Below, piece by piece: positions 3,216 through 34,691 of a stretch of DNA of 45,831 nucleotides. Below the pieces are notes generated by a model. That model did no database searches. It saw only the letters and a list, made by a program, of their open reading frames with translations, and was not told the origin of the DNA. Numbering within the stretch: position 1 is the first letter of the stretch; the number at the start of each line of letters is the position of its first letter. The translations under genes and the position numbers were made by a program. Where the stretch lies: the NCBI GenBank assembly GCA_043816785.1, contig JBDRHP010000068.1:1-45831 (forward strand). The letters are read 5' to 3'. This stretch comes from Candidatus Margulisiibacteriota bacterium (GTDB lineage: Bacteria > Margulisbacteria > WOR-1 > O2-12-FULL-45-9).

Positions 3216-3243
3216 TTATCGCCAGGTTCAGCGGAAAATTTCA
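3216..3243 (-). promoter_or_regulatory. sigma28/FliA-like promoter P1
   Basis: Minus strand T-GAAATTTT-ccgctgaacct(11)-GGCGATAA, 58 nt upstream of the ATG at 3157. Confidence 0.7.
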
Positions 3244-3261
3244 CTTTTGACGCTAAATAAT

Positions 3262-5538
3262 TTAGGCTTTGCCTGTTCCAAACACCTTGTTAAAGAAACC
3301 GGGCTTAATAGCGTCGTGAACTGCCCGGGCTTTTGCCCTGACATTCGCCTGTTCTTGAGAATTATTTGCGATGGCTGCCAGTATTGGGCCGGCATTATAC
3401 CGCTTTGCCAGGCTGGCAAGTCCGGAAGAATTTTTTGGTTGGTTCAGGGTTTGAACGATCATCCTGCGGAAATACTCGGTCATAACAACGTCTGCGCCGG
3501 CTCGGATAAAGCCATCACCAGTTTCCCTGAGCGGGTTTATTTGCTTGATAAATTCTGGAGTTGCCAGGGATTCAACAACTTTCCAGGCAATTTCTGGACG
3601 GATGTCCTGATGCAAAAGCCCCAGCTGTTCAGAAAGCGACATTTTCTTGATCGCCTCAAAAGTTAAGCTGGCAAAGAATAATGTTCGACGCAAAGTTTGC
3701 GCGTTGCCGCCTGCGATCCCATCCATTAATTCATAGGCCAGCCTCCTTTGGCCAGGATCAAGCCGGCTAAGCCTGGGATCAAAAGAATTGGACTGCTCTT
3801 GTTTGAGGGCGGGGTCTTGGGCTGGCTGGTTGCGGCGATCGTATTCCACGACATTGACCTGCGAGAGGTCGAGCGTATAAGGGAGATTGGCCACAACAAC
3901 GCTGATGTTATCACTAGAGCGGCCAAAGGAGTTATCCCGTATGCCTTCAGCTACCTCTAAGAGTGAGGCGCGGTTAGGGTCCCTGGCGATATTTGTCATC
4001 TCATGCTCTAAAACATTGCCGTCATTTGCCCCGTCAGAAGTAAGCACCAGTTTTGAGTTAACACTTGAGTCAATGAGTGAGATTTCCACGATCCTGATGT
4101 GCGGCGGCACCTGAATACTCCCGTCACGATTCTTATTATGGGCGCCGAGCGCAGAAGCGACGATGTTACTATTATTTTTAATTGCAGGCGGGAGATCAAT
4201 AGCTTCCAGCCGCTCTAAAGCAGCTTCAGTTAAAGGCAAGTCAGTAGCTTCCTGAGTATTCTGTGGTATCCACATGTATCTTAAATTATGATCTAAGGTC
4301 AGGTGATAAGTCTCGTTTTCCTGGACCAGTTTGGCGCGGGAATCGCCCACCTGCGCGATCTGCAGGAGCTTGTTTTTTCTGTCAACTATAACAACAACAA
4401 GAGTGGAGCCGGCTTCCTGGCCAGGCAGCTGCCGCGCTGCTCTTTCATTGGCAATGACAACCGCGTTGTAGAGCGTTTCCCCGGCTTGCAAAGCGTTAAG
4501 CAGATGCTGAATAATTAACCGGCTGGCTAATTCGCCGGCCGCATGGCCGCCCATGCCGTCCGCAACCACAAAGGCTTCGACATCTTCAGACAATCTGGCG
4601 TAGCCCGCGCTGTCCTCATTACCCTCGCGGATTCTGCCCTTGTCAGTGACCAGAGCAAAACCTGGGCCGGCAAAAGAGCCTTTGTCGCAGGTAACGCCAA
4701 ATAATTCAACCCGGCTGGCATAGCGCAACTCTTGATGGAGCCTTTGCACTGTCGCTTGCCAGATCGCGGCTGATCTGCCAGAAGCTGTTACAGCTCTTAG
4801 CGCAGCTGTCAAGGCATCGCTGGTTGATTGTCCCTCGAAACCAGCGTTTCTTAAAATCTCCTGCAGTCTCACATCATAATCCGACCATTGTTGGTTGATT
4901 TGCTGGAGATTATCGGCCCGCTTGGATTCTGCAGCGGCCTTTTGTTGTGCCTGATCTATTCGTGTCTTAGATTCTGTTGCTAAATCAATATTAAAGGCTT
5001 CAGCAATTTGGAGGGCTTCGGCGGCTTTTTCAGCCTGTTGTGTTGCGTCAATATTGGCGGTCTGGGATTGCTTTAGTTCGGTTCTTAGGTCTGTTAATTG
5101 TTTTTCAAGCTTGCCCAGCGTAGCAATCTTGCGCTGAAGCTCCTTTCTAAGATCAGTAACCTGTGTTTGCAGCTCGGTGGCGGCTGCTATGGTGGGACGC
5201 TGCGCAAGCTCCTCGGTGGCGGCTTTGAGATTGGTTTCAAGCTCAGACAGGCGCTGGCCCAATTCGGAGATCTTTATTTCAGCCGCGTCCAGTCGCTCCA
5301 GGGCCAAGTCCGCGACTAATATTGGGTCTAGCTCTTTATCCCGGACCAGATCCAGCACCCTCTTGGCCAGGGTTTCTGCTGTATTGGCAAAGCCAGCCGG
5401 CAAACCATCTCTGAAAGGGGCGCTGGCTAAAGTCCTTAAGCTGTGCCTTCCTGGTTGGGGGGCGCGCGGTGCTTGTCGGGCGGCATTGATAAACCTGGTT
5501 AGTCTGTTTAGATATTCAACTGATATTCTTGGAGGCAT
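3262..5538 (-). CDS. Coiled-coil + PP2C (PPM) family Ser/Thr protein phosphatase
   Basis: PPM motifs NEDS, VVADGMGGHAAGE, AGST, QVGDSRA, LTLDH, ASALG, LTSDG, SDNISVV, preceded by a long heptad-rich helical region. Confidence 0.9.
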   Translation of the reverse strand: MPPRISVEYLNRLTRFINAARQAPRAPQPGRHSLRTLASAPFRDGLPAGFANTAETLAKRVLDLVRDKELDPILVADLALERLDAAEIKISELGQRLSELETNLKAATEELAQRPTIAAATELQTQVTDLRKELQRKIATLGKLEKQLTDLRTELKQSQTANIDATQQAEKAAEALQIAEAFNIDLATESKTRIDQAQQKAAAESKRADNLQQINQQWSDYDVRLQEILRNAGFEGQSTSDALTAALRAVTASGRSAAIWQATVQRLHQELRYASRVELFGVTCDKGSFAGPGFALVTDKGRIREGNEDSAGYARLSEDVEAFVVADGMGGHAAGELASRLIIQHLLNALQAGETLYNAVVIANERAARQLPGQEAGSTLVVVIVDRKNKLLQIAQVGDSRAKLVQENETYHLTLDHNLRYMWIPQNTQEATDLPLTEAALERLEAIDLPPAIKNNSNIVASALGAHNKNRDGSIQVPPHIRIVEISLIDSSVNSKLVLTSDGANDGNVLEHEMTNIARDPNRASLLEVAEGIRDNSFGRSSDNISVVVANLPYTLDLSQVNVVEYDRRNQPAQDPALKQEQSNSFDPRLSRLDPGQRRLAYELMDGIAGGNAQTLRRTLFFASLTFEAIKKMSLSEQLGLLHQDIRPEIAWKVVESLATPEFIKQINPLRETGDGFIRAGADVVMTEYFRRMIVQTLNQPKNSSGLASLAKRYNAGPILAAIANNSQEQANVRAKARAVHDAIKPGFFNKVFGTGKA

Positions 5539-5549
5539 GTTTTCTCCTT

Positions 5550-7868: not shown

Positions 7869-7888
7869 TTTTGTAATTCCCCCTTTAT

Positions 7889-10231
7889 TTAACTTGAAAC
7901 ATTGTCCATGAGATAGCTCATGGTAGTTTGAATATATTCAGCTAATTCTGTTTCCTTGGCGCCTCTGGCTGTGATTAGCTGCATCATTAGTTCTGTATTT
8001 AATCGCGCAATGTCTGCTGGAGAAAGAGAGAAGACATCAAGTTCTCCGGTGATGATACTTTCCATGGTTGCCAATTTATTGTTGGTTGCGCCTTCTTTTA
8101 TCAGCTGAAGAATACCAGCCAGGCTGGGCCCTTCGCTGCTTGGCAAAAGCGCGTCCAAGCTGGGGCTGTCTGCAACAACCTCAATCTCGCCAGAACCAAC
8201 CTCCATGGTTGGCTCGCTTGGGCGAACTGGCTCAGATCGCGCTGTCTTTCTAGTTGCTTCTTCCTCAGGCCTCAAGGGCAGGCCTTGATTAAAGCGGTCC
8301 AAAACAGTCATTAGCGCATGAGCATCGCTATAGCCCTCTTTCAAATTCCATGTTACGCCGTTTAATATAATAGTAAAGAGATCGTCTTCAATCTGTGTCC
8401 TGGCCTTGACCCCGCGCAGGCTTTTAAAATCATGAACTAAAGCCCATTGTGACCGGATCTCATTTGCGCGGGTCATGTTTCCATCATTGAGTGCTTGCCT
8501 GAATAAAACAAAAGCATCGATCATCCGCCTCATGGGCATGGCGTTAATCACGGGCTTCCCTGTAGCTTTGTCATTAATAGGGCTTTCTCCTATATAATGG
8601 AGTCCGTCGCCAAGATCCCAGACCTGAGTATAACCTGTCAGCATTTTATAAATTATGACAGCATTGGCATAAAGATCATTTCTTTTCAGGACTTCCAGGT
8701 CTTTGTTGCCCCGCTTTTGGGCGCTATAATCAGTTAAGTAGAAGGGTCCGCCGTAAGCAGGCGTACCTGCCCAAATACCAGTGGCAGTTGCTTCAGCCTG
8801 GCCGTCAACATCCTTGGCCAGGCCAAAATCAGCCACCTTGATCTCACCGGTACTTCTATCGTAGAAAATATTCGCTGGTTTGAGGTCGCGGTGGGTAATG
8901 CCTAACTGGTGGAGATGGTGCAGGACACTGGCAATGGCATAACCGACCCGGGCTGCTTCTTCTGCCTGAAACACGCCGTCTTTTATTACTGCGTCTAAGT
9001 CTGGCCAGGCCATATGTTCCATGGTCAGCAGGGGATACTCTACTCCGTCAGGAGCAGTACAAACCCCTCGGGCAAAAACCTTGACTACTGACCCATGGTT
9101 AACTTTGGCTTGGGTTTCAAATTCACTCTTAAAACGGTCGGTGAAACTTAGATCCCTAAGAACTTTGAGCGCAACCCTTTGGCCGGTTGCAGCATCAATA
9201 GCTTCGTAAACTTCACCCATGGCGCCGCTGCCCAGCCAATGGGCATTGGGCAACAATGGCCGATTCATGCCTGTGCCTACTTTGGTGGTTATCCGGTCAG
9301 AAACCTCCTCAGTTACAGGTAAAAGGAAATAGGTCTTGGATTTACTATTAACAGTAAAGGCATCAGCAACATAAAGGCCAGCCTGCTCTGACATTTCTCT
9401 GATCTGATCAGAGCGTTCGCTTAGCAGGTTTCTGACTTCCTGTTGCACATCGCCTGGCATACGATCAAGCTGTTTGGCATAACCCAATAAGGTTCTTAGT
9501 TGTTCATGCGCAGTAGCCAAATTTTCCAACTCGTTAGCATTTTCATCAACTGTCCGGGTTCTGATCCTTTCCAGGCTGGCTCGAATGTTTAAAATTTCAG
9601 TGGAGTCAAGGACTGGGGGCTGTGCGTTGCCGCCATTAGCTGGTTTGACAGGGGCTTCCTGGCTAGTGGCGGAAGGCTTGTTAAATATGCGGCGCGCGAT
9701 TAGATGAAGTGGAACCGCAACAATAAGTGCTGCTGCTATGTGGAAGCCAGCGGTAAGAACAAATTTTGCCACTAAACCCATTTCAACTGTCCAGGCTGTT
9801 GGCAGTACATTCAGAGTAATATTGGTAGCCAGGCTTCTAAAACCCAGAATAAGAGAAGTAGCTGATAAAGTCCCGTACCAGCCAAGATAAGGCGCGGCTT
9901 TAGCAATCTTTTGCAGCGTGTTACCTTGTTTTGCGGGTGGGTTAGGAGCTGGCGGCGGTGTGCTGGGAGGTTTGGAAGGACCTGTCACAGGTGGTCGAGA
10001 TAACACACGAACTGGAGACGGGGTTTGTGTTCCGCCGTTTGCTGCCATCATCATAATGTGTGTAGCAAGAGGATTGGCCGCGCCGGCTGTCGCAGCCTGC
10101 GTAAATCGCAAAGAAGGCAAATGGCGGCTTAGAAATCCTCTAATATCCCGGCGAAGCTCCCTGCCAAGTAAAATATTGCTAAAATTTGTTACCTGCCGTC
10201 TAATGTTAACTCTATCAGCGATCAGTGGCAT
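7889..10231 (-). CDS. Hanks-type Ser/Thr protein kinase with two N-terminal hydrophobic helices
   Basis: LGSGAMGEVY, VALKVL, RFKSE, HRDLKPANI, VADFGLAK, GTPAY; hydrophobic segments at about aa 115-180. Confidence 0.92.
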   Translation of the reverse strand: MPLIADRVNIRRQVTNFSNILLGRELRRDIRGFLSRHLPSLRFTQAATAGAANPLATHIMMMAANGGTQTPSPVRVLSRPPVTGPSKPPSTPPPAPNPPAKQGNTLQKIAKAAPYLGWYGTLSATSLILGFRSLATNITLNVLPTAWTVEMGLVAKFVLTAGFHIAAALIVAVPLHLIARRIFNKPSATSQEAPVKPANGGNAQPPVLDSTEILNIRASLERIRTRTVDENANELENLATAHEQLRTLLGYAKQLDRMPGDVQQEVRNLLSERSDQIREMSEQAGLYVADAFTVNSKSKTYFLLPVTEEVSDRITTKVGTGMNRPLLPNAHWLGSGAMGEVYEAIDAATGQRVALKVLRDLSFTDRFKSEFETQAKVNHGSVVKVFARGVCTAPDGVEYPLLTMEHMAWPDLDAVIKDGVFQAEEAARVGYAIASVLHHLHQLGITHRDLKPANIFYDRSTGEIKVADFGLAKDVDGQAEATATGIWAGTPAYGGPFYLTDYSAQKRGNKDLEVLKRNDLYANAVIIYKMLTGYTQVWDLGDGLHYIGESPINDKATGKPVINAMPMRRMIDAFVLFRQALNDGNMTRANEIRSQWALVHDFKSLRGVKARTQIEDDLFTIILNGVTWNLKEGYSDAHALMTVLDRFNQGLPLRPEEEATRKTARSEPVRPSEPTMEVGSGEIEVVADSPSLDALLPSSEGPSLAGILQLIKEGATNNKLATMESIITGELDVFSLSPADIARLNTELMMQLITARGAKETELAEYIQTTMSYLMDNVSS

Positions 10232-10382: not shown

Positions 10383-11513
10383 CTAAGACATCTGGAAAAT
10401 CGTCAGCAGGACGTCGTGCATGGCCTGGTAGGAAGAGAATCTATCTTCTGGTTTGGGAGCCAGCGCCCGAAAGGTTGCCTGCCAGATCAGGGGCGAAACG
10501 TGGGCTGGGCGGTTTGGGATTAACTTATCGATAAAATGTTTAGGGTCAGCGCTGAAGCTGATCATCTGGCTGGGGTCGTTCGAGACAAATGGCTCTACGC
10601 CCGTCAGGAGCCAGTAGAGGACCGCGCCCAGGGAAAAAATATCTGCGCGATGATCAGCCTGCTTGGTCCCCCCATAATGAATAACCTCCGGCGCTGCGTA
10701 GCCCGGTGTTCCCATGAACTGTTCCACGGCTGTCAGCTCGCTTTGCGGCAACTTGGCTATGCCAAAATCGCCCAGCACAGCCCGTTTGACTTTGTTGTCA
10801 GCTATTTCCAGAAAAATGTTTTCAGGTTTGATGTCACGGTGGGCAAAATTGCCGGTGGGAGAGATTTGCCGCGCCGCGCGTTCAAAAGCGACCAAACCTT
10901 TCAGGATCTGGATCATGAGCCCTAATGAGACCCGCGGGTCAAAGGTTTGTCCAGGTTTTAGGGCTGAAATCAAATCCTTACCCTGGATCCTTTCCATAAT
11001 ATAAAAAGAGGGAAAGGGTTGGGGGTCACGGTCGATCAGCGCCACCACGTTGCGGCTGTTGATGTTTTCCATGATCTGGATCTCTTTGGCAAAGCGCAGC
11101 CGGAGTTGATCTCGGTCTGCTTTTGAAAAGTTATCAAGATTCATCAGTTTTTTAAGCAGATACTCTCTGCCTTGCTGATCGTGGACCACGAAGATCCGGG
11201 CCATACCGCCTTCAGCAAACATTTGTCTGACCTGGTATAAGCCTTTTGTTCCCTGGACGCTCCTGCCGACCTCGACCTTAACGTCAAACCCCATTTCCGC
11301 GTCAAAGACAGCTTCGATGCGGCGCCTGTTATCATCGCCGGTCATGAAAAAATTGGGGCTTTCCAGCGGGCCGTCCGCAGGGATTAATTGTCTTAGAGAG
11401 GGGAGCTGGCCAAAGGTTTTGGCCATAAAGCGGTCAACTCTTCTTAAGGCCGGATGCTGTGATCTAAGTAAACGGCCAACGTAATTATCTACGGTTCTTA
11501 ATATTCCTGGCAT
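10383..11513 (-). CDS. Soluble Hanks-type Ser/Thr protein kinase
   Basis: EGGMARIF, LLKKL, RFAKE, HRDIKPENI, LGDFGIAK, GTPGYAAPE, DIFSLG motifs. Confidence 0.93.
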   Translation of the reverse strand: MPGILRTVDNYVGRLLRSQHPALRRVDRFMAKTFGQLPSLRQLIPADGPLESPNFFMTGDDNRRRIEAVFDAEMGFDVKVEVGRSVQGTKGLYQVRQMFAEGGMARIFVVHDQQGREYLLKKLMNLDNFSKADRDQLRLRFAKEIQIMENINSRNVVALIDRDPQPFPSFYIMERIQGKDLISALKPGQTFDPRVSLGLMIQILKGLVAFERAARQISPTGNFAHRDIKPENIFLEIADNKVKRAVLGDFGIAKLPQSELTAVEQFMGTPGYAAPEVIHYGGTKQADHRADIFSLGAVLYWLLTGVEPFVSNDPSQMISFSADPKHFIDKLIPNRPAHVSPLIWQATFRALAPKPEDRFSSYQAMHDVLLTIFQMS

Positions 11514-13302: not shown

Positions 13303-14034
13303 TTAACTCCTTTCCGGTCTCACTAAATTAATCTCAGCTTGCCTGGCAGCTTGTGCCAACTTGCTAAGTTGAACATCAGGCAATTCTCGGATCAGGACTT
13401 CAACAGCTTCTCGGCTTTCGCTATCATTGACTGATCTAAGCATTTGCTTTGCCAGACGGGTTTGTTCGCTAGCTGGGACGTTGGCATCTCTAATTTCTCC
13501 GGCCAGGGTTTGGGCATCTGCTGGGGTTCTGGTAGCGTTAATAATTTGCCGCTGGACAGATCTGCGCTTAACGCCGCGCACAATCTTTTCAACTCCCAGG
13601 GTAATTAAACTGGTGGTAATCCCACCTAGCCAGAGCAGAGCAATAACTGGGGACACGGGGGTTCCGGCAGCTGCGGCAGCAGAAATCGCGTAACCGCCAT
13701 ACAGAATGGTTGCGCCTAAGGTAGTCCAGGCTGCGGCCCGGGTGATTAAACCACCCTTGGGCACTAGTTCTCTATTCTTAGTGTCCATTTTAGCTATTTC
13801 TTTGCCTTGCTTGGCTAAACCAACTACTTCAAAGCCAGTGACCAAGGCAGCCATAGTGGCCTTGCCAACCAGACTTAAGCCAGCCATCATAATAAATGCT
13901 ATGCCAAAATTTCTTCCGCTTTGCAGGGTATATGATTGGCGAGCGCCATAATACCTTAAACCCAGCGCCTGACGCCTAAAAGCTGGCGCGCTCCTTCTTG
14001 GTTGGATCGGGGCGATGCTCATGTTTGCTACCAT
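13303..14034 (-). CDS. Hypothetical membrane protein (3-4 hydrophobic helices) with Arg-rich N-terminus
   Basis: 243-aa ORF, AGGAGG RBS, hydrophobic stretches at about aa 43-75 and 100-150. Confidence 0.75.
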   Translation of the reverse strand: MVANMSIAPIQPRRSAPAFRRQALGLRYYGARQSYTLQSGRNFGIAFIMMAGLSLVGKATMAALVTGFEVVGLAKQGKEIAKMDTKNRELVPKGGLITRAAAWTTLGATILYGGYAISAAAAAGTPVSPVIALLWLGGITTSLITLGVEKIVRGVKRRSVQRQIINATRTPADAQTLAGEIRDANVPASEQTRLAKQMLRSVNDSESREAVEVLIRELPDVQLSKLAQAARQAEINLVRPERS

Positions 14035-14054
14035 TTTTGTTCCCTCCTAATTAT

Positions 14055-14086
14055 TCTGATACTCTGATCTTCTGATACTCTGATAA
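14055..14086. repeat. Degenerate 8-mer tandem repeat (TCTGATnn x4) in a 5' UTR
   Basis: TCTGATAC TCTGATCT TCTGATAC TCTGATAA. Confidence 0.7.
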
Positions 14087-14100
14087 TCTTTCCTATATAT

Positions 14101-14128
14101 ATATCGGCACTTTTTTCAAATAATTTCA
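14101..14128 (-). promoter_or_regulatory. sigma28/FliA-like promoter P4
   Basis: Minus strand T-GAAATTAT-ttgaaaaaagt(11)-GCCGATAT. Confidence 0.72.
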
Positions 14129-18136: not shown

Positions 18137-18195
18137 AATATCCCTTTTACCTGATATTCTGGTCCTCTAATATTCTGATAATCTTTCCTATATAT

Positions 18196-25800: not shown

Positions 25801-28800
25801 CAACGCCCTCGATCTCAGCTGGCGGGTGCATGTGATGCGGCCATTCGGTCTTTACTTCACCTAGCTTGCGGTTATCCTTTGAGTAAACCTCAATATAAGG
25901 CACGCCATCCCGATCCTTGATCAGGCCATAAGAAATATCCATCCAGGACCCTTTATTAGATTCTATATTAACGAACAGCATCCTGTTCTCAGGGTAGGGG
26001 ATATTGTATTCTTGTCCATCAGTGGTCCGGTATCTGATGCCGATAAATGAATCCTGTCGCCACCAACCAGCGGCTTGTTCGATTGGCCTTGCTGGATCCG
26101 GATTAGGGAAGGAGGCAGTCCATTCATCGTAGTTAACAACCCTGACGATCTTGTCTTTTTTGGCTGTAAGATTTATTTCCGCCTGAAGCACGCGTTCCGT
26201 GTTAATAACGATGTAGGCTTCATCACAAACATTGTAATTTTCGTTCGGTGCCAGGACTAGAACTTCGGGCCGGTCAATGAACCAGAGTGCCTCAGCACCA
26301 TGTTGAGCAACAAAAGCCTCATAATCATTGCCATAGTGAGCCTTAGCCCAAGCTTGGAACCTGGTCCTAAAGTTGGTTGGTGCTTCATGGCCTGGCAGCC
26401 AGACCAAATCGCTGGGCGCTACTGGATTGCCTTGCCAGTCGATCAAATGATTAGAAGGCAGCACTTCCTGATCACTAAAAAATCCCCTGACGATAAGATT
26501 ATGATGTCCGGTCCTAATGTTTATGTTTTCTTCCACCTGGCGGATATTGGCTGGTGTGTTGTCAACATATTGGAACTCATTGCTCATGGGCTGGGAGATG
26601 CCCAGGACCTCAAGAAATGTTTCTCGTCTGATCCAGAGGAAGCGCTTGTTTTCCGTCCGATCACCTGCGCGGTGGTTGTAGTTTGGGTTTTTTATCCTGA
26701 TATAAGTTGAGGGAACGTAATTTGGCTGGAAAACGTGACGGCCACCGCCTTGCGAAACCAGCCGCCAGACCTGATACAAGCTATCGCCCATGTGGGTTTC
26801 TGGCCAGGACAGGTTAGCTGTCTTGGTAAAGTAATTGTCATCTAATACGTCGAATTTCCTTTGAACATGATTGAACTCAACTGAAAATATGCCTAACATT
26901 TCTCTGACAAAAAATTCCAGGTCAGCGGGGGCTGCCGCGCCCTGCTTAGCCATTTCTTCAAAATCACGGGCCATTTCATAAAACCTAAAACCCCGTATCC
27001 GGACAGCTTCAAAAGTTGTGCGGACAAAAGATTCGTCATTGTCTAGCTTGAACCATTTTTCCGGACCAGGACGCTGGGCATCCTCTGCGAGCAGCCTTCT
27101 GAGCCGCGGCACAAAAGCTTGAGGATTGTCGAGCTTGGTATAGAGATCGCCCAATTGGTTAAGCAGCTGAGCTAGTTCCTGGGCAGCTTGATTTACTTGT
27201 TGGGGGTTGTTCTGGTCAACCTGCTGCAGTCTCTGATCGATCTGCTTAAACTGTTGATAGAGGCCATCGCGCCACTGCCGCATGTAGTCGTGGACCTCTC
27301 TGGCTGCTCTTAGTTGTTTGATCATCCCCAGGTTAGCAAAAGGCAAGCCCTCGCCGCAAAGCTCAACTTCCACGTGCGGGTATTCCATGATCAGCATGTT
27401 GACGATTTTAGAAAAATTTCGTTCAGCTTCCACTATATAGGCGATCATCCTGGCACAGAAATTATTAGTGCTGCGTAATTCCGCATCACTGAGCAAAGCA
27501 TCTCCAGGATTGAACATGGAGCGTTTCCAGTTGATAGCCGAGGTAATGGAGGCTTGTCCAGAGTGGACATCAGCAAAGATTGTCCAGTAACCAGTGAAGA
27601 CTGTGGCCAGATCAAAGAACAAAGCCATAGGATCAACGGCAAAAGGCAGGGTCAGGGCCAGCAGAGCGCCGTACTTGATTGCCAGGCCGGCTGCGAACTC
27701 GATTATCATCTTATCCATGGGATGGTAGTGCATACGGTCTGCTCTTTTATAAACAGCGCGCAGGGCATCTTTAACTTGATCAGGGCAGTTGTTCTGGCCA
27801 AGCTTATTTTCAGCAGCTTCGATGATCTTATTGATGTCATCTTTCGTTTTGCCTTTGAGGGAGATGACTTTTTCACCGTTGTTTATTTTTAGGGCAATGC
27901 TTTCATCCGAGCCTTTAGCGCCTGATATCTTTATGGTCATCTCCTGGTCAGTCCCCGGGCGCAGGGTTATGCTGCGCGAATTGAATCGATTAACCTGACG
28001 CTCGTACCAGTTGGCCACGCGTTCGGTTAATCTTTCTCTTCTCAAGCTGGGATATTCTTTTGCCAGCATAGGCAGGCCAAGCCGAACGCCTAAGCCGACT
28101 CCTGCGCCAACCAGGCCGAGAGTCGATAGGCCGGAACCGTGAAAAGCTGCCGCGCCTAAAGCAAAAGCAGCAAACAGCACGACCCTATAGGACATATAGT
28201 TGATGCCGGAAAATATTTTTAGATTTGACCAGGCCATGGTCTTGATGATCTGGCTCTTGGACAGAGGTCTTAAATAGCCCAAATTAGAAGAGAGTGCTCG
28301 AGAGGCATCTTTGACAGTCCAGGCAATGGTCCCAAGGAAGCCGGCGGTTAGACCAATCAGAGGCAGTGAGCCAAAATGTTTTTGCATGGCATCAATGAAC
28401 ATGAAACCACTGTTGTAGGTTACAAAACTGCCGTAGAGCATGCTGCCAGTCAGGGTAAAGGGCAGGAGCATGCTGCCAAACTTGAATATTTTACCAGCGC
28501 TAGAATGCGGATCCACCCGATTGAGAAGTACGGCGGACACCACGCTGTAAACAGTGCCGGCGCCTAAAAGATAAGAGGCTGGCACGCCTAAAATTGTTGC
28601 GCCAATAACCGCGGCAGAGCCCGCGCCAAGCATAAAAACAAGATCCAGACTGGCGCTGCCCTGTTCACTGCCGAGCAGGCGGGTGAAGGCGGTTTCTTGA
28701 GCCTGGAAAATACCAACTGAGAGATTTTCCAGTATTTCGCCTGTGCCTGGAAAAACTTCCTGCAATCCGTTAGACAAGGCGCTCATTCTAGCTGAGTTAA

Positions 28801-29056
28801 CGGTCCCGCGAAGCATAAACGACTCAAGCTCTTGAATTGAGGACAGCTGGTTTCTAAAACGGCCCTTGAGAACACCTTGGGCCATTAGTTGGTCAAGCAC
28901 TGCGTCCTGGTTCTGGACGTCTAGACTGCGCAGGTTTTGGGCTAATAATGCACGGTTGGCAAAACCAAAGCGGGCATAGAAGTTGGTTAACCGTGGGGAA
29001 ATGCGGTTTTGAATAAACCGGCCAATCGGGTTGATCCTTGTTTGTGATGGGCTCAT
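22829..29056 (-). CDS. Giant, highly diverged cellulose-synthase (BcsA/CesA)-like GT2 membrane protein
   Basis: BcsA-like motifs in the correct order: YPHVEV (~PtVDV), TKTANL (~HAKAGNL), IDVFH (~FDADH), GQRQQ (~VQTPQ), DEYFY..QTGKD, NGTQFVG (~FCGS), SGGF, VSED (TED), GYQLKY, QDAQRY (QxxRW), FVITAEQK (FxVTxK gating loop); multiple N- and C-terminal TM helices. Confidence 0.72.
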   Translation of the reverse strand: MSPSQTRINPIGRFIQNRISPRLTNFYARFGFANRALLAQNLRSLDVQNQDAVLDQLMAQGVLKGRFRNQLSSIQELESFMLRGTVNSARMSALSNGLQEVFPGTGEILENLSVGIFQAQETAFTRLLGSEQGSASLDLVFMLGAGSAAVIGATILGVPASYLLGAGTVYSVVSAVLLNRVDPHSSAGKIFKFGSMLLPFTLTGSMLYGSFVTYNSGFMFIDAMQKHFGSLPLIGLTAGFLGTIAWTVKDASRALSSNLGYLRPLSKSQIIKTMAWSNLKIFSGINYMSYRVVLFAAFALGAAAFHGSGLSTLGLVGAGVGLGVRLGLPMLAKEYPSLRRERLTERVANWYERQVNRFNSRSITLRPGTDQEMTIKISGAKGSDESIALKINNGEKVISLKGKTKDDINKIIEAAENKLGQNNCPDQVKDALRAVYKRADRMHYHPMDKMIIEFAAGLAIKYGALLALTLPFAVDPMALFFDLATVFTGYWTIFADVHSGQASITSAINWKRSMFNPGDALLSDAELRSTNNFCARMIAYIVEAERNFSKIVNMLIMEYPHVEVELCGEGLPFANLGMIKQLRAAREVHDYMRQWRDGLYQQFKQIDQRLQQVDQNNPQQVNQAAQELAQLLNQLGDLYTKLDNPQAFVPRLRRLLAEDAQRPGPEKWFKLDNDESFVRTTFEAVRIRGFRFYEMARDFEEMAKQGAAAPADLEFFVREMLGIFSVEFNHVQRKFDVLDDNYFTKTANLSWPETHMGDSLYQVWRLVSQGGGRHVFQPNYVPSTYIRIKNPNYNHRAGDRTENKRFLWIRRETFLEVLGISQPMSNEFQYVDNTPANIRQVEENINIRTGHHNLIVRGFFSDQEVLPSNHLIDWQGNPVAPSDLVWLPGHEAPTNFRTRFQAWAKAHYGNDYEAFVAQHGAEALWFIDRPEVLVLAPNENYNVCDEAYIVINTERVLQAEINLTAKKDKIVRVVNYDEWTASFPNPDPARPIEQAAGWWRQDSFIGIRYRTTDGQEYNIPYPENRMLFVNIESNKGSWMDISYGLIKDRDGVPYIEVYSKDNRKLGEVKTEWPHHMHPPAEIEGVDGVPRIEFDMFTDRVGMATWLIADYGENYGSESYNRYRFSRLDFDTEAKLQFWPNFIRSIKTSSNGKRLIFKTISTNCESFPFDKRWANIQMAHEAEALEVNTSGNIYIDPNTHTWSPVRDARHTQQVKRGGLVLVRDASGNEAVLPLERLPRGLRSLKDLRKIIDAELVGDQLVVTKLRRNSPTKDTTEYIYSLRNGLVEESESYKQLKWLLEKQDLTVRVSQADGTYQLELFDQEGNRVDIPLEAADLVDHYGQGFLQSRQMGSADSFYQRNNNNYQGTAEYRPRLVRIDGKIKLILTRAEKVSVERSASTAQLFDYLSSTTPAKIMIAKPTSAVKVRVDGNEKWVPMSLTKPITYKETANNATVGVKVNGKIRYFQAPLSKDLPPVTYYIKYDRATDRFVAYTLEAERNEETGAISFVHLATAPVSNEVEQQIRNSLAQNGVSDLNSVDDIRIDVFHTRPPEVIDGVYHSVVHGQRQQGVFYKDETFPASEQAQFRDEYFYAITNELFSEAFPPNRDARSGGLQTGKDRDFDENDKNSGKPIENGTQFVGNHQHLFELAEVLMGVPKGGLIAYAMALGRSGGFEKIIHKPNFAKLTLYCREKGWMSGVSEDEQGVLSLALALGYQLKYHLRITAFEAQPNTYGQVHGQDAQRYNTALALGEDVLMPYERREMLKRLGGKRFAGTWKQKLEHFAFRAWYEWPKAELARQASPIVFLATNGRVKPYIVDPYFLFSWSLDFLVGLGMYSNMRAGLGRTKETTGHNRYWWSFIEGPSMNQAFFFQSHRGILELFRKGWQYGNFVITAEQKTESSVPEENKNYLEHMIVAQGASVAFGLAMTVPGAIALGDIGHAFTKDYLFNEIWALYAMYINLRALNYIERNEISHPESKDSKAEAFRAERLQAVENINVASDETGNRFFEAYDAFRAGDQARAIDMLQQIVAEDAPHKIMNYVLLSERLLEELGIDLKTVPRGKMTSQGRKLNFWGAWK

Positions 29057-29079: not shown

Positions 29080-29107
29080 ATATCGGCAGTTTTTGGGTAA
29101 AATTTCA
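29080..29107 (-). promoter_or_regulatory. sigma28/FliA-like promoter P6
   Basis: Minus strand T-GAAATTTT-acccaaaaact(11)-GCCGATAT, 23 nt upstream of the synthase ATG. Confidence 0.75.
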
Positions 29108-29129
29108 GGAAATTTTGAGGAAATGAGCT

Positions 29130-31715
29130 CTATAAGTTGGAGGATTCATCTATAGGAATGGAGATTTCGAGCAGATCCTGATCAAGATCATACTCAAAAT
29201 CCAATAGTTGGTTAATCTTTGCCAGGTCAAATTTCTCTAAAAGAGCTAATAATTGCGCTCTATCTTGGGTGCTTCTGAATTCGAAACTAACTCTTTTTAT
29301 AGAGGTTTTTTGCACATATTCGCTCAGCCAAATGAGTAACCTGGCCCGCAATCTGGCGTCATCCATCCCTCTGGTCAGACTGTCAATCTTGCGGATATCG
29401 CTGATCGCGCCCAGCCTTGTTTTTAGATCATTTACTTTGTTGGATATTTTCCTGCTCAAATAAGCCTCGAGCTTTCTTTTCTTTTTGGGGGACCTTGTTC
29501 TGGCTAGCTGGTTACGCAATTCTGGATTTTCGGCCAGGACCTGCTGTCTGCAATAATTATCCAGTTCCTGGGCAGCCAGGCTCGCGTCCTTTTGGCGTAT
29601 GGCTTCATCTTCGGCAGAAGGTTTTGAAGGAGTTTCCCTGACGACCCAGCGATTCCAACGATTGATCCCTTCACTTTCCTGGCCAAAACCAATTTTCTCC
29701 AGCTTGCTGGAGAGCTCTTCGTGGGATCTGGCATAGAGCACTGACTGGTAGGCTTGACGGATGCTGTTGAGATCACGCACTGATAGTTTTCCTCTGTGGC
29801 CAACCGAGTTCATGTCAGCGATCCCCAGTAAATAGAGACATCTGATGGCAAAATCCCGCAATTTTCTGTCAGGATACAATTCAAAAATCTGATGAAGGAT
29901 TTCAGGATCTTCTTCCCGGATAATGAAGGCGTCGCCGAACAGAGAATGAAATCTGATTATATTTTTGACAAAATCCAATTCATCCCCGGCAACCGAGCCA
30001 CGAAGAGACCTAATTTGTCCGAAAATTTGCGCTCCAAGGCTGGCGTGGGTATTGTGTTTGACGAGTTTACCGATATCATGCAAGAGCACGCCAATCAGGA
30101 ATGCCCTGAACAAACTCCGGTTTTCTTCCCTAATAATACCATGATAAACCTCGGAAAAATGTCGGAAGTCAGAAGTGGAATGGGCCAGATTATCTTCATC
30201 TCTAAATTCTCCTCTTTCAGCCAATTCCCGGGCAAGCATAACATCCGGGCTATGCGCTGCTTCGGCAATAAAGCGCAGCGTGTGGAATAGCCCGAGAACG
30301 TGATCCAGCAGAACGCGCTCTTCCACCGCCGGGAATAAACTCATTGCTTGGTAGATCGTGACCTTGCTTTCTGTTGTTGGGTCAAGATCAGGAACAGCCC
30401 CAAGCAATTCTTTACATCTGGCCAGGTTTAATGTTATAGAAAGAAGGCGATTGATGTCGCCTGGAAAGAAATAGTCCAAAAAAGACGCCAAACCTTCGTT
30501 CCGCATCTGTTGTTCAAAATCATGTGCCGGTTCCACTCTAATAAAAGCGAGCAGATCTCTGAGTTCGTCAGCTGTTTCTATTCTGGCAAAACGGCTTTCT
30601 TCTCCAGCGGCAATTGCCTGATCGATCAAGGCTTTATCTTTGTGGTTAAGCTCGCCATATAGTTCTTGCGTGACCCTGCTGACCTGCTCAAGTTTTTCTG
30701 GAGTGGTTAGGACCAGGTAGTTGGTATGTGGGGAAGTCTGTTCGGCCAACTCCATTCCGGGGAAGTGGCGCTCAGCTACTGACCGGTAGACACTGAGGGC
30801 CTGTCTGGCCCACACCTGAGCAAGGTCATCCGTAAGTTCTCGATCAGGTCCCCAAAGCTCGTCATTTTTGAAAAGCCCGACCAGTTGGCCTGATTCAAGC
30901 CTTTCTTTAGCCACGCCAGCAAATCTCGGGTCGCCATATTTACCGTTGGTAACTGCTTCAATATGGCTCAAACTTCTGGCGTAAGCTCGGTCAGCCCGGT
31001 AGAGGCCGGCTTTGAGCAAACTAAGTTCATCGTAAAATTCCGCAAAACCAGGAAGGCTCCTTTCCCAGCCCAAGCCAACGTAATGAAAAGCGGGAGGGGC
31101 GGCTAAGCCAATATAGGCAAAATCATGCACAGCCAAAACACTTCTGGTGTTGTCAAAAAATCTGTCAGAGGCTTGGAAATTGGGTTTTTCATCGGCCCGA
31201 AGCTGAGCTAAATACACCGGGATAAGAGCTGTATGCCAGTCGTGACACACAAAAATGTCCGGGGCAGTGTCCAGGTGTCTTTGTAATTCCATAGCGGCAT
31301 GACAGAAGAAGGCAAATCTTTCGATGTCATTTGCCCAGCCGTACATTTTTTCCTGATCAAAAAAATCCGGGCTATCAATAAAGTATGTTGGCTCTGCCAG
31401 CTCTTCAGGCGGGGACATGGTTTTGATCGGGACATCTCTTCTTTTGCTGCCGAAGGAAAAGTGCAAAGTAGCGAACTCCCAAAGTTGCCGACCTTCTGAT
31501 TCAATAATTTCCCGGGTTGTTCGAAACAAAGGCAGAACCGATGAAGCATCTACTCCTAATGATCTTAGGGCTGGCGGGACTTTGCCGGCTACCTGGGAGA
31601 GCCCTTTTCGCATTTGTTCCGGGACATAAGGATAGGCTTGCGTGGCTACGTGAACCACGCGCAAATTTCTTTGCCCGACCAAAGGTTGGTATAAGTTTAG
31701 CCTTGAGAGAGCCAT
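29130..31715 (-). CDS. Glycogen/starch synthase N-terminal (GT5) domain fused to a GlnD-like HD domain
   Basis: GT5 N-domain: RVVHVATQAYPY, ERFAFFCHAA, PDIFVCHDWHTALIPVYL, SVLAVHDFAYIG, LLKAGLYRAD. HD part: DHVL, VLLHDIGK, HASLGA, IIRFH, LYLLGIADM. No GT1-type C-terminal half. Confidence 0.75.
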   Translation of the reverse strand: MALSRLNLYQPLVGQRNLRVVHVATQAYPYVPEQMRKGLSQVAGKVPPALRSLGVDASSVLPLFRTTREIIESEGRQLWEFATLHFSFGSKRRDVPIKTMSPPEELAEPTYFIDSPDFFDQEKMYGWANDIERFAFFCHAAMELQRHLDTAPDIFVCHDWHTALIPVYLAQLRADEKPNFQASDRFFDNTRSVLAVHDFAYIGLAAPPAFHYVGLGWERSLPGFAEFYDELSLLKAGLYRADRAYARSLSHIEAVTNGKYGDPRFAGVAKERLESGQLVGLFKNDELWGPDRELTDDLAQVWARQALSVYRSVAERHFPGMELAEQTSPHTNYLVLTTPEKLEQVSRVTQELYGELNHKDKALIDQAIAAGEESRFARIETADELRDLLAFIRVEPAHDFEQQMRNEGLASFLDYFFPGDINRLLSITLNLARCKELLGAVPDLDPTTESKVTIYQAMSLFPAVEERVLLDHVLGLFHTLRFIAEAAHSPDVMLARELAERGEFRDEDNLAHSTSDFRHFSEVYHGIIREENRSLFRAFLIGVLLHDIGKLVKHNTHASLGAQIFGQIRSLRGSVAGDELDFVKNIIRFHSLFGDAFIIREEDPEILHQIFELYPDRKLRDFAIRCLYLLGIADMNSVGHRGKLSVRDLNSIRQAYQSVLYARSHEELSSKLEKIGFGQESEGINRWNRWVVRETPSKPSAEDEAIRQKDASLAAQELDNYCRQQVLAENPELRNQLARTRSPKKKRKLEAYLSRKISNKVNDLKTRLGAISDIRKIDSLTRGMDDARLRARLLIWLSEYVQKTSIKRVSFEFRSTQDRAQLLALLEKFDLAKINQLLDFEYDLDQDLLEISIPIDESSNL

Positions 31716-31739
31716 AAATTCCTTTCTTAAGAAAAAATA

Positions 31740-33077
31740 TTAGATCGGGTCAAAGGCCAGGCCGCCGTGAATGGTTTCATAAATGATGCGGTCACTTATC
31801 GTCTTGGGAGCGAATTCCGGCCCGAGCGTTCCGCCGACAAAAATACAGTTGACCAGTCTGACTCCTCGGCTGATCACATTCCTTCTCATCATGGACTTGC
31901 CGGCAAGACTTTGGTGGCTTCCCGGAAAAACAATACTGTTTTTGATGTGGCCGGCAATGTCGGTATTGCCAAGGATAACGGAATTCCTGATCCTGGCAGT
32001 ACTTCTAATGACAGCGCTTTCGTCGATAAAGGAAGGGTTTCGAAATTTCCTGGCCAACTCTCCCAGACTCTGCCAGCTGCTGGGAAATCGGCCGACTGAT
32101 TCTGCTTCTTCATTGGGTTTCTGGCCGGCATTCATTTGCAGGGCTGCCAGGTTGGCCTGAAGTAAAGCCAGCGGATTGCCAATGTCACGCCAGTAAGTGT
32201 TTCCTGGGAGGAGGTAGGCGTAAAAAGGATAATCTCCCCGTTTGACTTTGCGAATAAAATTGTCATTAATATTGTGCGAAGCAAATTCTTCGTGCCGGCC
32301 GCCAAGCAAAGGGAGAATATGAAGGCCGATATCGGAAAAGCGGGGATCGGCTTCTCTTGGAGTGATGAAAGGGGCAAGGTCCATTAATAGTCCAGCCTGG
32401 AAGAAATATATTGCCGTGCTGATCAAGTTGCTTTGAGCGCGATCCCTTTCTTCCTGTTCGCAGAAGGTCTCGACCCGAAATGATTGTCCGTGGAGGACCT
32501 CTGACCGCTGTCTTAGTGCAGTTTCAAAATGATTTCTGTCTCTAAACTCAGCAATGGTTGGCAGAATGCCCAATTTGATCGTGCCAAAAGTTCGTTCTTT
32601 CCATTCTGTTGAGGACCATCTGATAGGCAGGGCGGCTACGGTGAGTGCGGCATTATTGTGCAAGTGATTTAACAAGATCGGTTTCAAATCAATGTTATTA
32701 GGCGTGTCGCAGGGCAGCACACAAATAGTGTCTCCCCGGTCAACGTCGAGGAAATTTTCCATGATATATTTTAAGGTGCCGGCCGTGTCCAAAAGGCTTT
32801 TCTCGCTAAAAGCGTTGATTCTAAAGGATGGGGTTTCCAGCTCGGCAAGGTGCCTTTCCAGTATCTCAGACATGGGACGCGGACCGGTGCCAACATGGAT
32901 CATTTGAACGCCCAGTCTTTGCAGAGCATTGATCGAATAATCGATCAAAACCCTGTTGAGCAATGGGAGCATTGGCTTAGGGCGGGCAAACGAGCAAATA
33001 CCTGGATTTGTGATCGCGCGGTGTCTCATGCCGTAACCAGCTGCCAGAATAACTCCGTGAACGATTGACGTCTTCAT
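31740..33077 (-). CDS. Sugar-1-phosphate nucleotidyltransferase (GlgC / mannose-1-P guanylyltransferase-like)
   Basis: ILAAGYGMR...RPKPMLP, LDTAG, VLPCD, LTVA, ISTAIYFF, SDIGLHILP, YWRDIG, C-terminal left-handed beta-helix-like repeats (IRNSVI, IKNSIV). Confidence 0.8.
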   Translation of the reverse strand: MKTSIVHGVILAAGYGMRHRAITNPGICSFARPKPMLPLLNRVLIDYSINALQRLGVQMIHVGTGPRPMSEILERHLAELETPSFRINAFSEKSLLDTAGTLKYIMENFLDVDRGDTICVLPCDTPNNIDLKPILLNHLHNNAALTVAALPIRWSSTEWKERTFGTIKLGILPTIAEFRDRNHFETALRQRSEVLHGQSFRVETFCEQEERDRAQSNLISTAIYFFQAGLLMDLAPFITPREADPRFSDIGLHILPLLGGRHEEFASHNINDNFIRKVKRGDYPFYAYLLPGNTYWRDIGNPLALLQANLAALQMNAGQKPNEEAESVGRFPSSWQSLGELARKFRNPSFIDESAVIRSTARIRNSVILGNTDIAGHIKNSIVFPGSHQSLAGKSMMRRNVISRGVRLVNCIFVGGTLGPEFAPKTISDRIIYETIHGGLAFDPI

Positions 33078-33132
33078 TATTAGACCCCGATTTAATTAAA
33101 GTATTTGGCTCCAAACGCTTCTAGCCATTTAT

Positions 33133-33160
33133 TTATCCGTGGCTTTTGATAAAAATTTCA
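33133..33160 (-). promoter_or_regulatory. sigma28/FliA-like promoter P7
   Basis: Minus strand T-GAAATTTT-tatcaaaagcc(11)-ACGGATAA; the most divergent -10 of the set. Confidence 0.55.
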
Positions 33161-33179
33161 GTTTTGAAGAGGAAAATAG

Positions 33180-33221
33180 GTGCGCCTTTAGTCAAAAAGG
33201 CAGCCCCTTTTGTTAAAGCAC
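33180..33221 (-). terminator. Imperfect hairpin just after the UDPGP-like gene stop
   Basis: Minus strand GTGCTTTAACAAAAGG-GGCTG-CCTTTTTGACTAAAGGCGCAC. Confidence 0.35.
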
Positions 33222-33225
33222 TTTT

Positions 33226-34629
33226 TTAGATTATGCCATGTTCTCTGGCTAAATCGAGGAACCCCGGTTGCTGGTCTTGAGCCTGCATTGCCTCCAAAGT
33301 TGGTGCTCCGTGGGCCAAAATCTTAAGATTTCTGATCTGCTGCACTGGCTGCCACATGATCACTGCAGTGGGTAATTCAAAGTTTTGGTCTCCTTGCACA
33401 CTTTGCGGATAAAGATGATGCCCCTTGATGGTTAAATGCTGCGGCAATGTTTGTCTGGCCAGGACACGCAAGGCCTCAACCGGGTTCGGGAACATGTTAA
33501 AGTTTTTATTTAAATAAGCGATCTGCGCCAGTGAGGCTGGATCGTCATTGCGGACAATGTCCCCGCCACAATCGCTTTCAATGCAAACGACCTTATCCAA
33601 GGCCGGGTCAAAGGTGAAAAAACCGCCTTTTTGCGGTGGGATCCCTTGCGCCACAGCTTCCATGGTCATCCGAAAACCCTGGTTGCCCAAACGCAAGGCC
33701 ATGGCCAGGTTGGTCAGATTAATTGCGCTGGTCAAGTAATCCAGATCTTCGATCGGGTAGGAGGTAAGATTGCTCATGCCGCTAAAAATTTCTTCAACAG
33801 CTTCAGGAGCTAAGAAATTTCTTTCCAGCTCACCGTTAGCAGGATTGATCCTGGCCCAAAAGACTTTGCCGTTGAGGGTTTCTTGTGTTTTCATGTCTCC
33901 ATGGTTCCAAAGCCTAAATTCTGAGCGTTGGTCAAAATAAACTTGGCTGTCTCTGATGCTCATGCCCAGACCTTTTTCCTGAACAACAAACAGGGTTCGC
34001 TCTGGTGACAGGCCAAAGTGACTGTGTTGGGCAAATTCTCGCACGATCTGCAATTGAGTTTCTTCATTAAGCACAGTTAAGCTAAATTGGCTTTTAATTA
34101 CTTCAGCTGGGTTTAAAGCCGGGCTGGAGCTGGGAGAGGCAGCCAACTTTATTAAGTCATAAACAAATTGCAGTTTATGCCTGACTCCTAAAGAGATCGG
34201 GGCCAGGTCATTGGGAGCCACAGGGATGGGGATGATGTTATCGGGTTGCCTTAATCCGTGTAGAATTAGCGCTTCAGCAATCTTTTGCGGGGTGAGCAAA
34301 TATTTTGTGCCTAAGCCGAGCCTGGTTGCTTCGCCGGCTGCGGCATCTTCAACGATTTCTTGCCCCCCCAGTTTTACTGCTTCGGCTGCTCGCAGTTCCT
34401 CAGCGGAAACGGAATCCGGGGTTACGACAACGAGATGGTCTGCGACCCTTTGCATATCACAGTTTCCCAGGTCGCGATAAGCCCGTAACCTGACTTGGTC
34501 TAGGGCGATTTGTTTTGTTGTTAGGGAAGGCATTCTGGAGCCGTAGAAACTATTAAGTTCAGCTTGTGTTCGTGACAAAACTCTTCCGCGATAACCGGTC
34601 ATTGTCCTCATGTTTGTTCTGGCAACCAT
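33226..34629 (-). CDS. UDPGP-family (eukaryote-type UTP:sugar-1-phosphate uridylyltransferase) protein
   Basis: AAAGEATRLGLGTK (~LAGGxGTRLG..K), VVQ, WNHGD (~GHGD), PIEDL (~NVDN), QKGG, VVCIE, LNKNFN (~NTNN). Confidence 0.65.
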   Translation of the reverse strand: MVARTNMRTMTGYRGRVLSRTQAELNSFYGSRMPSLTTKQIALDQVRLRAYRDLGNCDMQRVADHLVVVTPDSVSAEELRAAEAVKLGGQEIVEDAAAGEATRLGLGTKYLLTPQKIAEALILHGLRQPDNIIPIPVAPNDLAPISLGVRHKLQFVYDLIKLAASPSSSPALNPAEVIKSQFSLTVLNEETQLQIVREFAQHSHFGLSPERTLFVVQEKGLGMSIRDSQVYFDQRSEFRLWNHGDMKTQETLNGKVFWARINPANGELERNFLAPEAVEEIFSGMSNLTSYPIEDLDYLTSAINLTNLAMALRLGNQGFRMTMEAVAQGIPPQKGGFFTFDPALDKVVCIESDCGGDIVRNDDPASLAQIAYLNKNFNMFPNPVEALRVLARQTLPQHLTIKGHHLYPQSVQGDQNFELPTAVIMWQPVQQIRNLKILAHGAPTLEAMQAQDQQPGFLDLAREHGII

Positions 34630-34663
34630 AATATTTTACTCCTTTACAATTAGTTCTATTTTT

Positions 34664-34691
34664 TTATCGGACTAAAACTTTAGAAATTTCA
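34664..34691 (-). promoter_or_regulatory. sigma28/FliA-like promoter P8
   Basis: Minus strand T-GAAATTTC-taaagttttag(11)-TCCGATAA, 34 nt upstream of the ATG at 34629. Confidence 0.7.

Follow-up and report, generated by a model that had tools for sequence, protein, structure and literature searches.

The 45,831-nt stretch of DNA that was analysed, called the window below, comes from a Saganbacteria genome of class WOR-1 of the Margulisbacteria (G000; 1.53 Mb, 86.75% complete). On its minus strand it carries eight copies of a spaced motif, TGAAAT...CGATA (GGATA in one copy), that is very probably the promoter of a sigma-28-family factor, with the transcription start inferred. Two such factors, named here the sigma-A and the sigma-B type, are encoded in G000, and across the phylum their genes are found in the operons of a flagellum-derived export machine. 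The sigma-A type probably reads the motif, and the chance that the motif is the late promoter for the substrates of this machine appears somewhat better than even.

The motif in the window, the genome and the phylum

The pattern TGAAAT-N16-[C/G]GATA was matched eight times in the window, always on the minus strand, which agrees with the eight fixed-spacing copies listed in an earlier sequence-only reading of this DNA. Shuffling of the window gave a mean of 0.03 matches, and 0/100 shuffles reached eight, an expectation that is post hoc, the pattern having been drawn from the same sites. The geometry is that of TAAA-N17-CGATA with GAAA replacing TAAA. At the eight sites the start codon follows the final A of GATA at 59, 67, 19, 67, 60, 24, 56 and 35 nt; the range of 18-66 nt given previously differs by a one-base offset in counting. 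The seven minus-strand genes that have no motif of their own follow the preceding gene at 20, 11, 20, 7, 3, -19 and 24 nt, as expected from the claim that none of them is more than 24 nt away from the gene before it. None of the plus-strand genes of the window is preceded by the motif and no flagellar gene was found by Pfam among the 24 window open reading frames (ORFs) scanned, both of which had likewise been noted. Rfam gave no match in the window. A further, ninth near-match, whose spacer is shorter by one nucleotide, is located at 37840-37865, inside an ABC permease gene.

In the whole of G000, TGAAA-N17-CGATA has 46 copies, compared with 2-5 at each of eight other spacers from 13 to 21. 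A matrix that was started from the eight sites of the window and refined on G000 itself yielded 83 sites at >=13 bits and 68 at >=17 bits, where shifted spacers give 5-15 and 1-3, respectively. The refined consensus is [G/C]TGAAATTt-N-tnnCGA[T/a]A, in which positions 21-22, the bases preceding CGA, are degenerate (0.13 and 0.10 bits). Among 769 upstream regions the motif was the top gapped pair, and after its removal no second sigma-28-like pair, so none for sigma-B, emerged from them. TAAA-N17-CGATA was found in 0/769 of these regions and at background level genome-wide, and a sigma-70 consensus accompanied 0/54 motif-led genes. At >=15 bits 73 sites are obtained, 57 of which have a co-oriented gene of >=100 aa no more than 130 nt away, at distances of 7-82 nt. 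By context they comprise 30 tandem-same, 2 tandem-opposite, 30 divergent, 2 convergent, 6 intragenic and 3 contig-edge sites. A genome-wide examination of orientation had been proposed in the sequence-only reading: in the 32 tandem intergenic sites the motif runs along the genes 30 times and against them twice. The motif is counted as a sigma-28-type promoter because of its rigid spacer, its orientation bias, its position upstream of genes and the lack of an accompanying sigma-70 site. The earlier proposal of a sigma28-like promoter with a shifted -35 is thereby strengthened. The regulon of about 35 kb that went with it has to be given up; confinement to the window is ruled out by some 70 sites in the genome and by the spread through the phylum, and the window is a dense patch of this larger set. 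Motif-led operons hold at least 72 of the 1366 called genes. Three top-scoring sites, C80:15344, C5:19348 and C91:516 (loci L013, L018 and L058), are followed by no ORF >30 aa and are candidates for small RNAs or micropeptides.

Exact copies of TGAAATT-N15-CGATA are present in 141/146 genomes of the phylum, a reversed-pattern control giving 0-2. In class WOR-1/Saganbacteria all 65 genomes contain them (9-189 copies, median 39). The 81 genomes of other classes contain 0-69 copies (median 5; five have none), and counts of 1-3 in some of these are not clearly above the control. The gene cluster of the window is partly kept in five relatives with changed gene order, and the homologue of its 2075-aa gene is preceded by the motif in 5/5 relatives examined. 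In G000, G016, G031 and G066, which represent two classes, rpoD is motif-led, the motif standing 15-76 nt ahead (L008:4127-4153 on contig C55 of G000, L347, L243 and L259). An alternative sigma factor would therefore feed the primary one. The copy upstream of rpoD in G000 overlaps the 3' end of dnaG.

The motif copies and genes of the window are as follows, in the order of transcription.

34665..34691, minus strand: motif copy 1, 35 nt upstream of 33226-34629
33226..34629, minus strand: 467-aa protein with a predicted UDP-sugar pyrophosphorylase-like fold (PF01704-like); no Pfam match; Atlas features 0.91, TM 0.66 to UDPGP clusters
33134..33160, minus strand: motif copy 2, GGATA variant, 56 nt upstream of 31740-33077
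31740..33077, minus strand: sugar-nucleotidyltransferase (PF00483)
29130..31715, minus strand: GT5 glycogen/starch-synthase-like protein, 861 aa; 17-aa N-terminal extension relative to the non-motif GT5 paralogues of the genome
29081..29107, minus strand: motif copy 3, 24 nt upstream of 22829-29056
22829..29056, minus strand: 2075-aa orphan with 3 predicted hydrophobic segments; homologues in 14/41 genomes, of the same order only; no usable Pfam or Atlas match
21690..22847, minus strand: TPR-like protein (weak Pfam matches)
18261..21686, minus strand: glycoside hydrolase family 8 (GH8) domain protein, 1141 aa, without a hydrophobic signal segment
18197..18223, minus strand: motif copy 4, 60 nt upstream of 14159-18136
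14159..18136, minus strand: TPR protein, 1325 aa (Pfam)
14102..14128, minus strand: motif copy 5, 67 nt upstream of 13303-14034
13303..14034, minus strand: 243-aa orphan with 2 predicted hydrophobic segments
11655..13295, minus strand: PKD-domain protein without a hydrophobic signal segment
11533..11559, minus strand: motif copy 6, 19 nt upstream of 10383-11513
10383..11513, minus strand: Ser/Thr kinase with an Arg-rich N-terminal extension of ~95 aa
10299..10325, minus strand: motif copy 7, 67 nt upstream of 7889-10231
7889..10231, minus strand: Ser/Thr kinase, 780 aa
5550..7868, minus strand: PP2C-type phosphatase with an Arg-rich N-terminus
3262..5538, minus strand: PP2C-type phosphatase with an Arg-rich N-terminus
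3217..3243, minus strand: motif copy 8, 59 nt upstream of 2117-3157
2117..3157, minus strand: 346-aa orphan
1..2096, minus strand: NHL/Ig-like surface protein with a Sec-type hydrophobic start, running past the contig end

The set consists of glycan, kinase/phosphatase and PKD/Ig-like genes, in line with the glycan synthesis, phospho-signalling and surface genes named in the sequence-only reading. The sole further minus-strand ORF of the stretch, 34786-35454, has no Pfam match and overlaps a plus-strand GH26 gene. The latter belongs to a motif-free cluster of GH26, ABC sugar permease and CBM9 genes (35126-41309, plus strand) that diverges from the motif-led island and recurs in similar order in G011 (L316); downstream of it follow pth and an mfd-like gene (43029 to the end; the mfd label is by reading only). 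Imperfect short repeats ATCAGA[G/A]T occupy intergenic positions at about 14045-14095, 18145-18190 and 41320-41440, two of these lying between a motif and the start codon. A palindrome CCTGCC-TGCCGGCA-GGCAGG is found at about 36420 and 41400; it is likely a dispersed repeat of the repetitive extragenic palindromic (REP) kind, and related pairs rank high genome-wide.

Sigma-28 paralogues and the flagellum-derived export machine

The sigma set of G000 consists of RpoD, one extracytoplasmic function (ECF) factor, a sigma-54 DNA-binding domain and two sigma-28-family proteins, one of the sigma-A type (C86:1516-2148, 210 aa) and one of the sigma-B type (C72:3466-4200). Canonical FliA/WhiG was defined by TIGR02479 at its curated cut-off of 189.6 bits. 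This is the best family for both proteins, yet both fall below the cut-off, sigma-A with 76 bits and sigma-B with 133 bits. The inspection of FliA/WhiG homologues and of their region 4.2, to which the sequence-only reading had pointed, hence gave two sigma-28-family factors, one with an altered region 4.2.

The sigma-A type is present in 136/146 genomes (71/72 of high quality), with one copy per genome except in a single case, and its sequences form a long-branch clade (support 100/100); of its 360 homologues, those that bear a taxon name among the 120 listed are Margulisbacteria/WOR-1 throughout. Aligned to FliA it is without about 80 residues across domain 3, in two gaps of about 57 and 25 columns, and its predicted model has two confident helical domains joined by a low-confidence linker (residues 102-136). 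Retained are the residues aligned to R74, D81 and R84 of Escherichia coli FliA, which we take to be involved in reading the -10. In region 4.2, ESRVSQ of FliA (218-223) has become ESQVSR; the helix S-E-S-Q-x-[ST]-R-I is constant in 12/12 sequences from several classes, where FliA has ESR[IV]SQ. In 14/50 locus rows (3 of them duplicates) the motif occurs 483-759 nt upstream of sigma-A, and it is also located upstream of the cassette in G109. Just upstream of sigma-A lies an ORF of 67 aa, whose product starts with an M-x-I-R-R-I-S-like sequence in many extracted loci.

The sigma-A operon reads fliM-fliN-fliO-fliP-fliQ-fliR-flhB-flhA-(small ORFs)-sigma-A. Sigma-A ends this fliM-flhA operon in G016 and G031 (single-contig genomes), G110, G069, G066 and G041, follows flhA in G109 and G099, and is detached from flhA in G000, G111, G116 and G120. 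The sigma-B operon reads flgF-flgG-flgA-flgH-flgI-ORF-sigmaB-flgB-flgC-fliE-fliF-fliG(short)-fliH-fliI-fliJ. Both layouts are conserved across classes, and export gate, ATPase, MS ring, rod and L/P rings are all present. The term 'non-flagellar' previously applied to the regulon therefore holds for the window, which is free of flagellar genes; it does not hold for the two candidate sigma genes, which lie inside flagellum-derived export operons elsewhere.

That this machine is distinct from the flagellum is seen in G110, which has two flhA genes, one with FliA, flgD and motB on the same contig and the other beside sigma-A. The sigma-linked FlhAs are 61-83% identical to one another and 38-45% identical to flagellar FlhA; the FlhA of this system scores 755-781 bits as FlhA vs 649-658 bits as SctV. 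In the 65 WOR-1 genomes flagellin_N (PF00669) was matched once, the MotB plug in four and FlgD_N (PF03963) in none. The single flagellin_N match of the class (L156; G019 C4:62270-62632; 59 bits) apparently stands behind a Sec-type leader. FliG is short (154-205 aa). Neither FlgM nor a FlgK-like hook-junction protein was found in four WOR-1 genomes; G110 gives a likely FlgK. FliK-like proteins are retained, as is the NP[TVI]H site of FlhB in 6/6. A FlgE-like gene of 269-292 aa adjoins an ORF of 165 aa with a FlgD Tudor-like match just under the cut-off (E 6e-6); a divergent short hook is likely, and the idea of a hookless machine was dropped after this match. Together the genes make up a conserved export system of the hook-basal-body type that has no filament and in most cases no stator; it is a paralogue of the true flagellum.

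Canonical FliA could be set aside as the reader of the motif. FliA above the cut-off was found in 22/146 genomes and in 0/65 of WOR-1, and the flagellin genes use another promoter: of 30 flagellin-domain loci, eight have TAAAG...CCGA or TAAAG...TCGATA upstream (by eye and pattern), one, in a fragmented genome, has GAAAT...CGATA, and none has TGAAATT. Since the flagellated genomes keep the TGAAATT motif elsewhere, the two promoter classes coexist. One class of flagellin genes, at loci L146, L147, L150, L151, L153, L157, L159, L161, L163 and L169, carries the element G[G/A]CCGC[A/C/T]TGTCGG about 100-170 nt upstream, possibly an RNA element. In G089-G097 and G064 FliA above the curated cut-off occurs without a flagellin or FlgD match. 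A third sigma paralogue with a QMHVSR helix, presumably SigB/SigF-like, is encoded in flagellated Margulisbacteria (L182:4745-5491, L186:4353-5120); being present in G110 and G099 but not in G000, it was rejected as a candidate.

Motif-led proteins as possible cargo and the rival readings

The reading preferred here, to which we give a slight balance of probability, is that the motif is a late promoter for the substrates of a filament-less, flagellum-derived type III export machine and is read by the domain-3-less sigma-28 paralogue. It is modelled on the flagellar late-gene hierarchy, as outlined in part of PMC7911332. The cell would build the basal body and a short hook, and export specificity would then switch through FliK/FlhB. 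The product of the 67-aa ORF, a candidate FlgM-like secreted brake, would be removed and sigma-A released. This would turn on the late genes, and orphans together with extra kinases, phosphatases, RelA/SpoT, GGDEF and glycan enzymes would be made and exported; the window would be one cargo island.

The composition of the motif-led proteins is consistent with such a role. Of the 73 ORFs after non-window sites (some of them weak), 47 have no Pfam match at 1e-6, and the annotated rest includes Ser/Thr kinases, GGDEF, a histidine kinase, three RelA/SpoT, ADP-ribosylglycohydrolase, FHA, PGM, GH16 and YkuD. Motif-led extra copies are extended N-terminally when compared with the non-motif paralogue: RelA/SpoT by about 40-70 aa, GT5 by 17 aa, Rpe by about 235 aa and aminotransferase IV by about 140 aa. 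In G000 the first 30 aa of 54 motif-led proteins contain 3.7 Arg and 1.3 Asp+Glu vs 1.5 and 2.7 in 1103 genes, and these N-termini are also Pro-rich. The bias is strongest in the first 20-40 aa and fades past residue 40-50. It survives GC matching, which rules out GC bias as the cause of the Arg-rich starts. Sec-like starts are present in 1/57 motif-led proteins vs 326/1306 others in G000. Tat signals were rejected as an explanation as well, with TatC in 5/65 WOR-1 genomes and a twin arginine plus h-region in 2/57 vs 44/1306. In three other-class genomes the pattern K[ILVT][ILV][SA] occurs within aa 1-13 of 23/47 motif-led vs 15/202 other proteins, and in an internal window in 0/47. The N-terminal extensions may thus serve as export signals. 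In G000 the preference of motif-led proteins for Arg over Lys exists despite a lower GC content at third codon positions (0.455 vs 0.515). Proteins at L011:1261-2913, L047:66-944, L339 and L342 have a long basic N-terminus followed by a lipoprotein-like Ala/Leu run and Cys.

Several results weigh against the preferred reading. The N-terminal rule replicates unevenly. An Arg rule designed post hoc on G000, where it holds for 26/54 motif-led vs 30/1103 genes, was replicated weakly in G016 (5/24 vs 6/121, p 0.019) and was not replicated in G031 (2/27 vs 4/113), G066, G109 or G110; the sites used were 30/44 in G031, 30/69 in G066, 30/37 in G016 and all 29 in G109 and G110. Net positive charge is higher in G016, G031, G109 and G110, not in G066, and the rules 'aliphatic at position 3/4' and '[RK][IV] start' showed no enrichment in G000. 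The K-I-I-S pattern was first seen in the data on which it was tested, with neighbouring genes as background, and is found in 1/57 of G000. Motif-led proteins prefer Arg over Lys along their full length (0.60 vs 0.39), and part of the signal is therefore not N-terminal. Some members are not cargo: rpoD (in four genomes), an RRM protein, an Rrf2 regulator, a sigma-54 activator and Sec/lipoprotein-type proteins. At the threshold used 36/50 sigma-A locus rows have no upstream motif, four rows being too short. The Gln-to-Arg change of sigma-A is not tied to the T-to-G change of the -35 because Q589 makes no direct base contact according to part of a preprint (PMC12262734), which weakens the idea that this Arg reads the new G. 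For the 67-aa ORF neither a PF04316 match nor profile similarity to FlgM was found. No secretin, tip, needle or translocon protein was recognised in the two operons, and secretin, needle and translocon were not searched for genome-wide. The sole RNA run (X1) gave 9 short contigs without start positions, and no habitat could be named from its small share.

Where exported proteins would go follows partly from their substrates. Kinase, ppGpp, c-di-GMP and glycan enzymes need ATP, GTP or nucleotide sugars and, if exported, must therefore reach the cytoplasm of another cell; the ppGpp and c-di-GMP enzymes would then point to a bacterial partner. As no translocon was identified, secretion to the surface or the medium is possible too. 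A tentative extension, which we rate as rather unlikely, is that the Margulisbacteria, a sister phylum of the Cyanobacteria, independently made a duplicated flagellum into a cell-targeting protein-injection machine with a private sigma factor and promoter, whose targets would most plausibly be bacteria. The motif would in that event be a genome-readable tag listing the effectors of each species, from few to about 190 sites, and the Saganbacteria would be epibionts or parasites instead of free-living fermenters. Termititenax of the same phylum reportedly attaches to spirochetes. Ruthmannia is described as intracellular in Trichoplax (PMC6784892).

A quarter of our expectation goes to the kind of developmental or host-contact programme put forward in the sequence-only reading. 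The sigma-28-type regulon would then belong to some stage of the life cycle or to a stress state, descending from the flagellar hierarchy but uncoupled from export, and the basic N-termini would serve turnover or localisation, for instance. Its members rpoD, regulators, glycan-storage-like enzymes and RelA/SpoT copies would suit it, as would the uneven N-terminal rule and the missing translocon, and Chlamydia sigma-28, which governs late developmental genes, is a precedent (PMC10597470, in part). It leaves aside, however, that the export machine is highly identical throughout the phylum and has the sigma genes within its operons. A short N-terminal motif shared by unrelated proteins, and extracellular-type domains (PKD, GH8, GH16) without Sec signals, are also hard to explain without an export route.

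An improbable variant retains the whole system and lets the rod-operon sigma-B read the motif, setting off a cascade to which the sigma-A cassette and rpoD belong. Sigma-B is widespread (38/41 WOR-1 genomes searched; 5/5 other-class genomes from which the operon was fetched). It is closer to FliA/WhiG by its score, its middle region is complete and it retains the counterparts of R74 and D81, and a motif before the sigma-A cassette suits a cascade as well as autoregulation. Its recognition helix, however, varies across the phylum (SRPKVCR, SRSKVNR, SKSKVSR, SNSKVCR) while the -35 is constant, and Lys takes the R84 position in WOR-1. The variation affects positions matching R584 and E585 of sigma-70, which are base contacts (PMC12262734, in part). 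Within 1.5 kb of sigma-B the motif was found in 0/30 rows, although sigma-B sits mid-operon. The sigma-A type is thus clearly favoured over sigma-B as the reader. That the motif is a transcription-factor operator or a mobile or repeat element is very unlikely: a few strong sites do lack a following ORF, but the motif is asymmetric, with a degenerate spacer of fixed length, gene-wise orientation, sigma-28 geometry with a CGATA core and no accompanying sigma-70 promoter.

For an entire phylum without cultured members the analysis supplies a consensus promoter and a candidate sigma factor, and it exposes a conserved second flagellum-derived export system. If the motif-led proteins are indeed cargo, this would be an independent exaptation of a flagellum for secretion that keeps rod and rings and bears on the evolution of type III secretion, and candidate substrates could be listed from the genome alone. 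The motif makes the lifestyle of the Saganbacteria testable, and a sigma factor that lacks domain 3 and has a rigid promoter of its own is also a candidate part for orthogonal expression.

Comparison with known systems

No paper on the promoter, the sigma factors or the export system was found in the literature, where supplements and subscription papers may list the genes as flagellar. The main text of PMC6349859 does not contain 'flagell', 'secretion' or 'sigma', that of PMC6784892 does not contain 'flagell', and that of PMC13277936 does not name the phylum.

The motif resembles FliA/SigD class III promoters in its 4-N17-5 spacing (8-11-8 form) and its CGATA -10 core, and the system resembles FliA/SigD-FlgM in the sigma gene after flhA, the R74/D81/R84 equivalents and the parts of the FliK/FlhB switch. 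It differs in the -35, which is TGAAATT and not TAAAG, and in the degeneracy of the two bases before CGA. The sigma-28 consensus has a GC extended -10 at this place, which the motif lacks. Unlike FliA/SigD, sigma-A is without about 80 residues of domain 3 and its targets are not flagellar; no FlgM was matched in the four WOR-1 genomes, and in flagellated relatives canonical FliA and its promoter are separate.

A sigma-28-family factor on non-flagellar genes is also known from Chlamydia sigma-28 and from WhiG of Streptomyces and Rubrobacter, and WhiG chains are among the solved-structure matches. The Chlamydia regulon consists of two genes (PMC10597470, in part). The one described here has about 70 sites per genome and up to 189 exact copies, and differs further in its changed -35 and its linkage to an export apparatus.

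Basal bodies of the Buchnera type are said to be hook-basal bodies without flagellin, proposed for secretion, and represent the reduced sole flagellar system of an endosymbiont. In contrast, the present system is paralogous, stands beside a complete flagellum in some relatives and has its own sigma factors.

With the injectisome and the Myxococcales intermediate it shares an export gate and ATPase without a filament, mostly without a stator, and N-terminally biased putative substrates. In parts of Abby and Rocha (PMC3459982) flgB, flgC and fliE are treated as flagellum-specific rod genes, and the Myxo systems are described as lacking FlgBCDEK, FliEG and FlgH. Here, unlike in these systems, rod, L/P rings, FliE, a short FliG and a short hook are kept and FlhA outscores SctV. 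It therefore looks like a separate exaptation.

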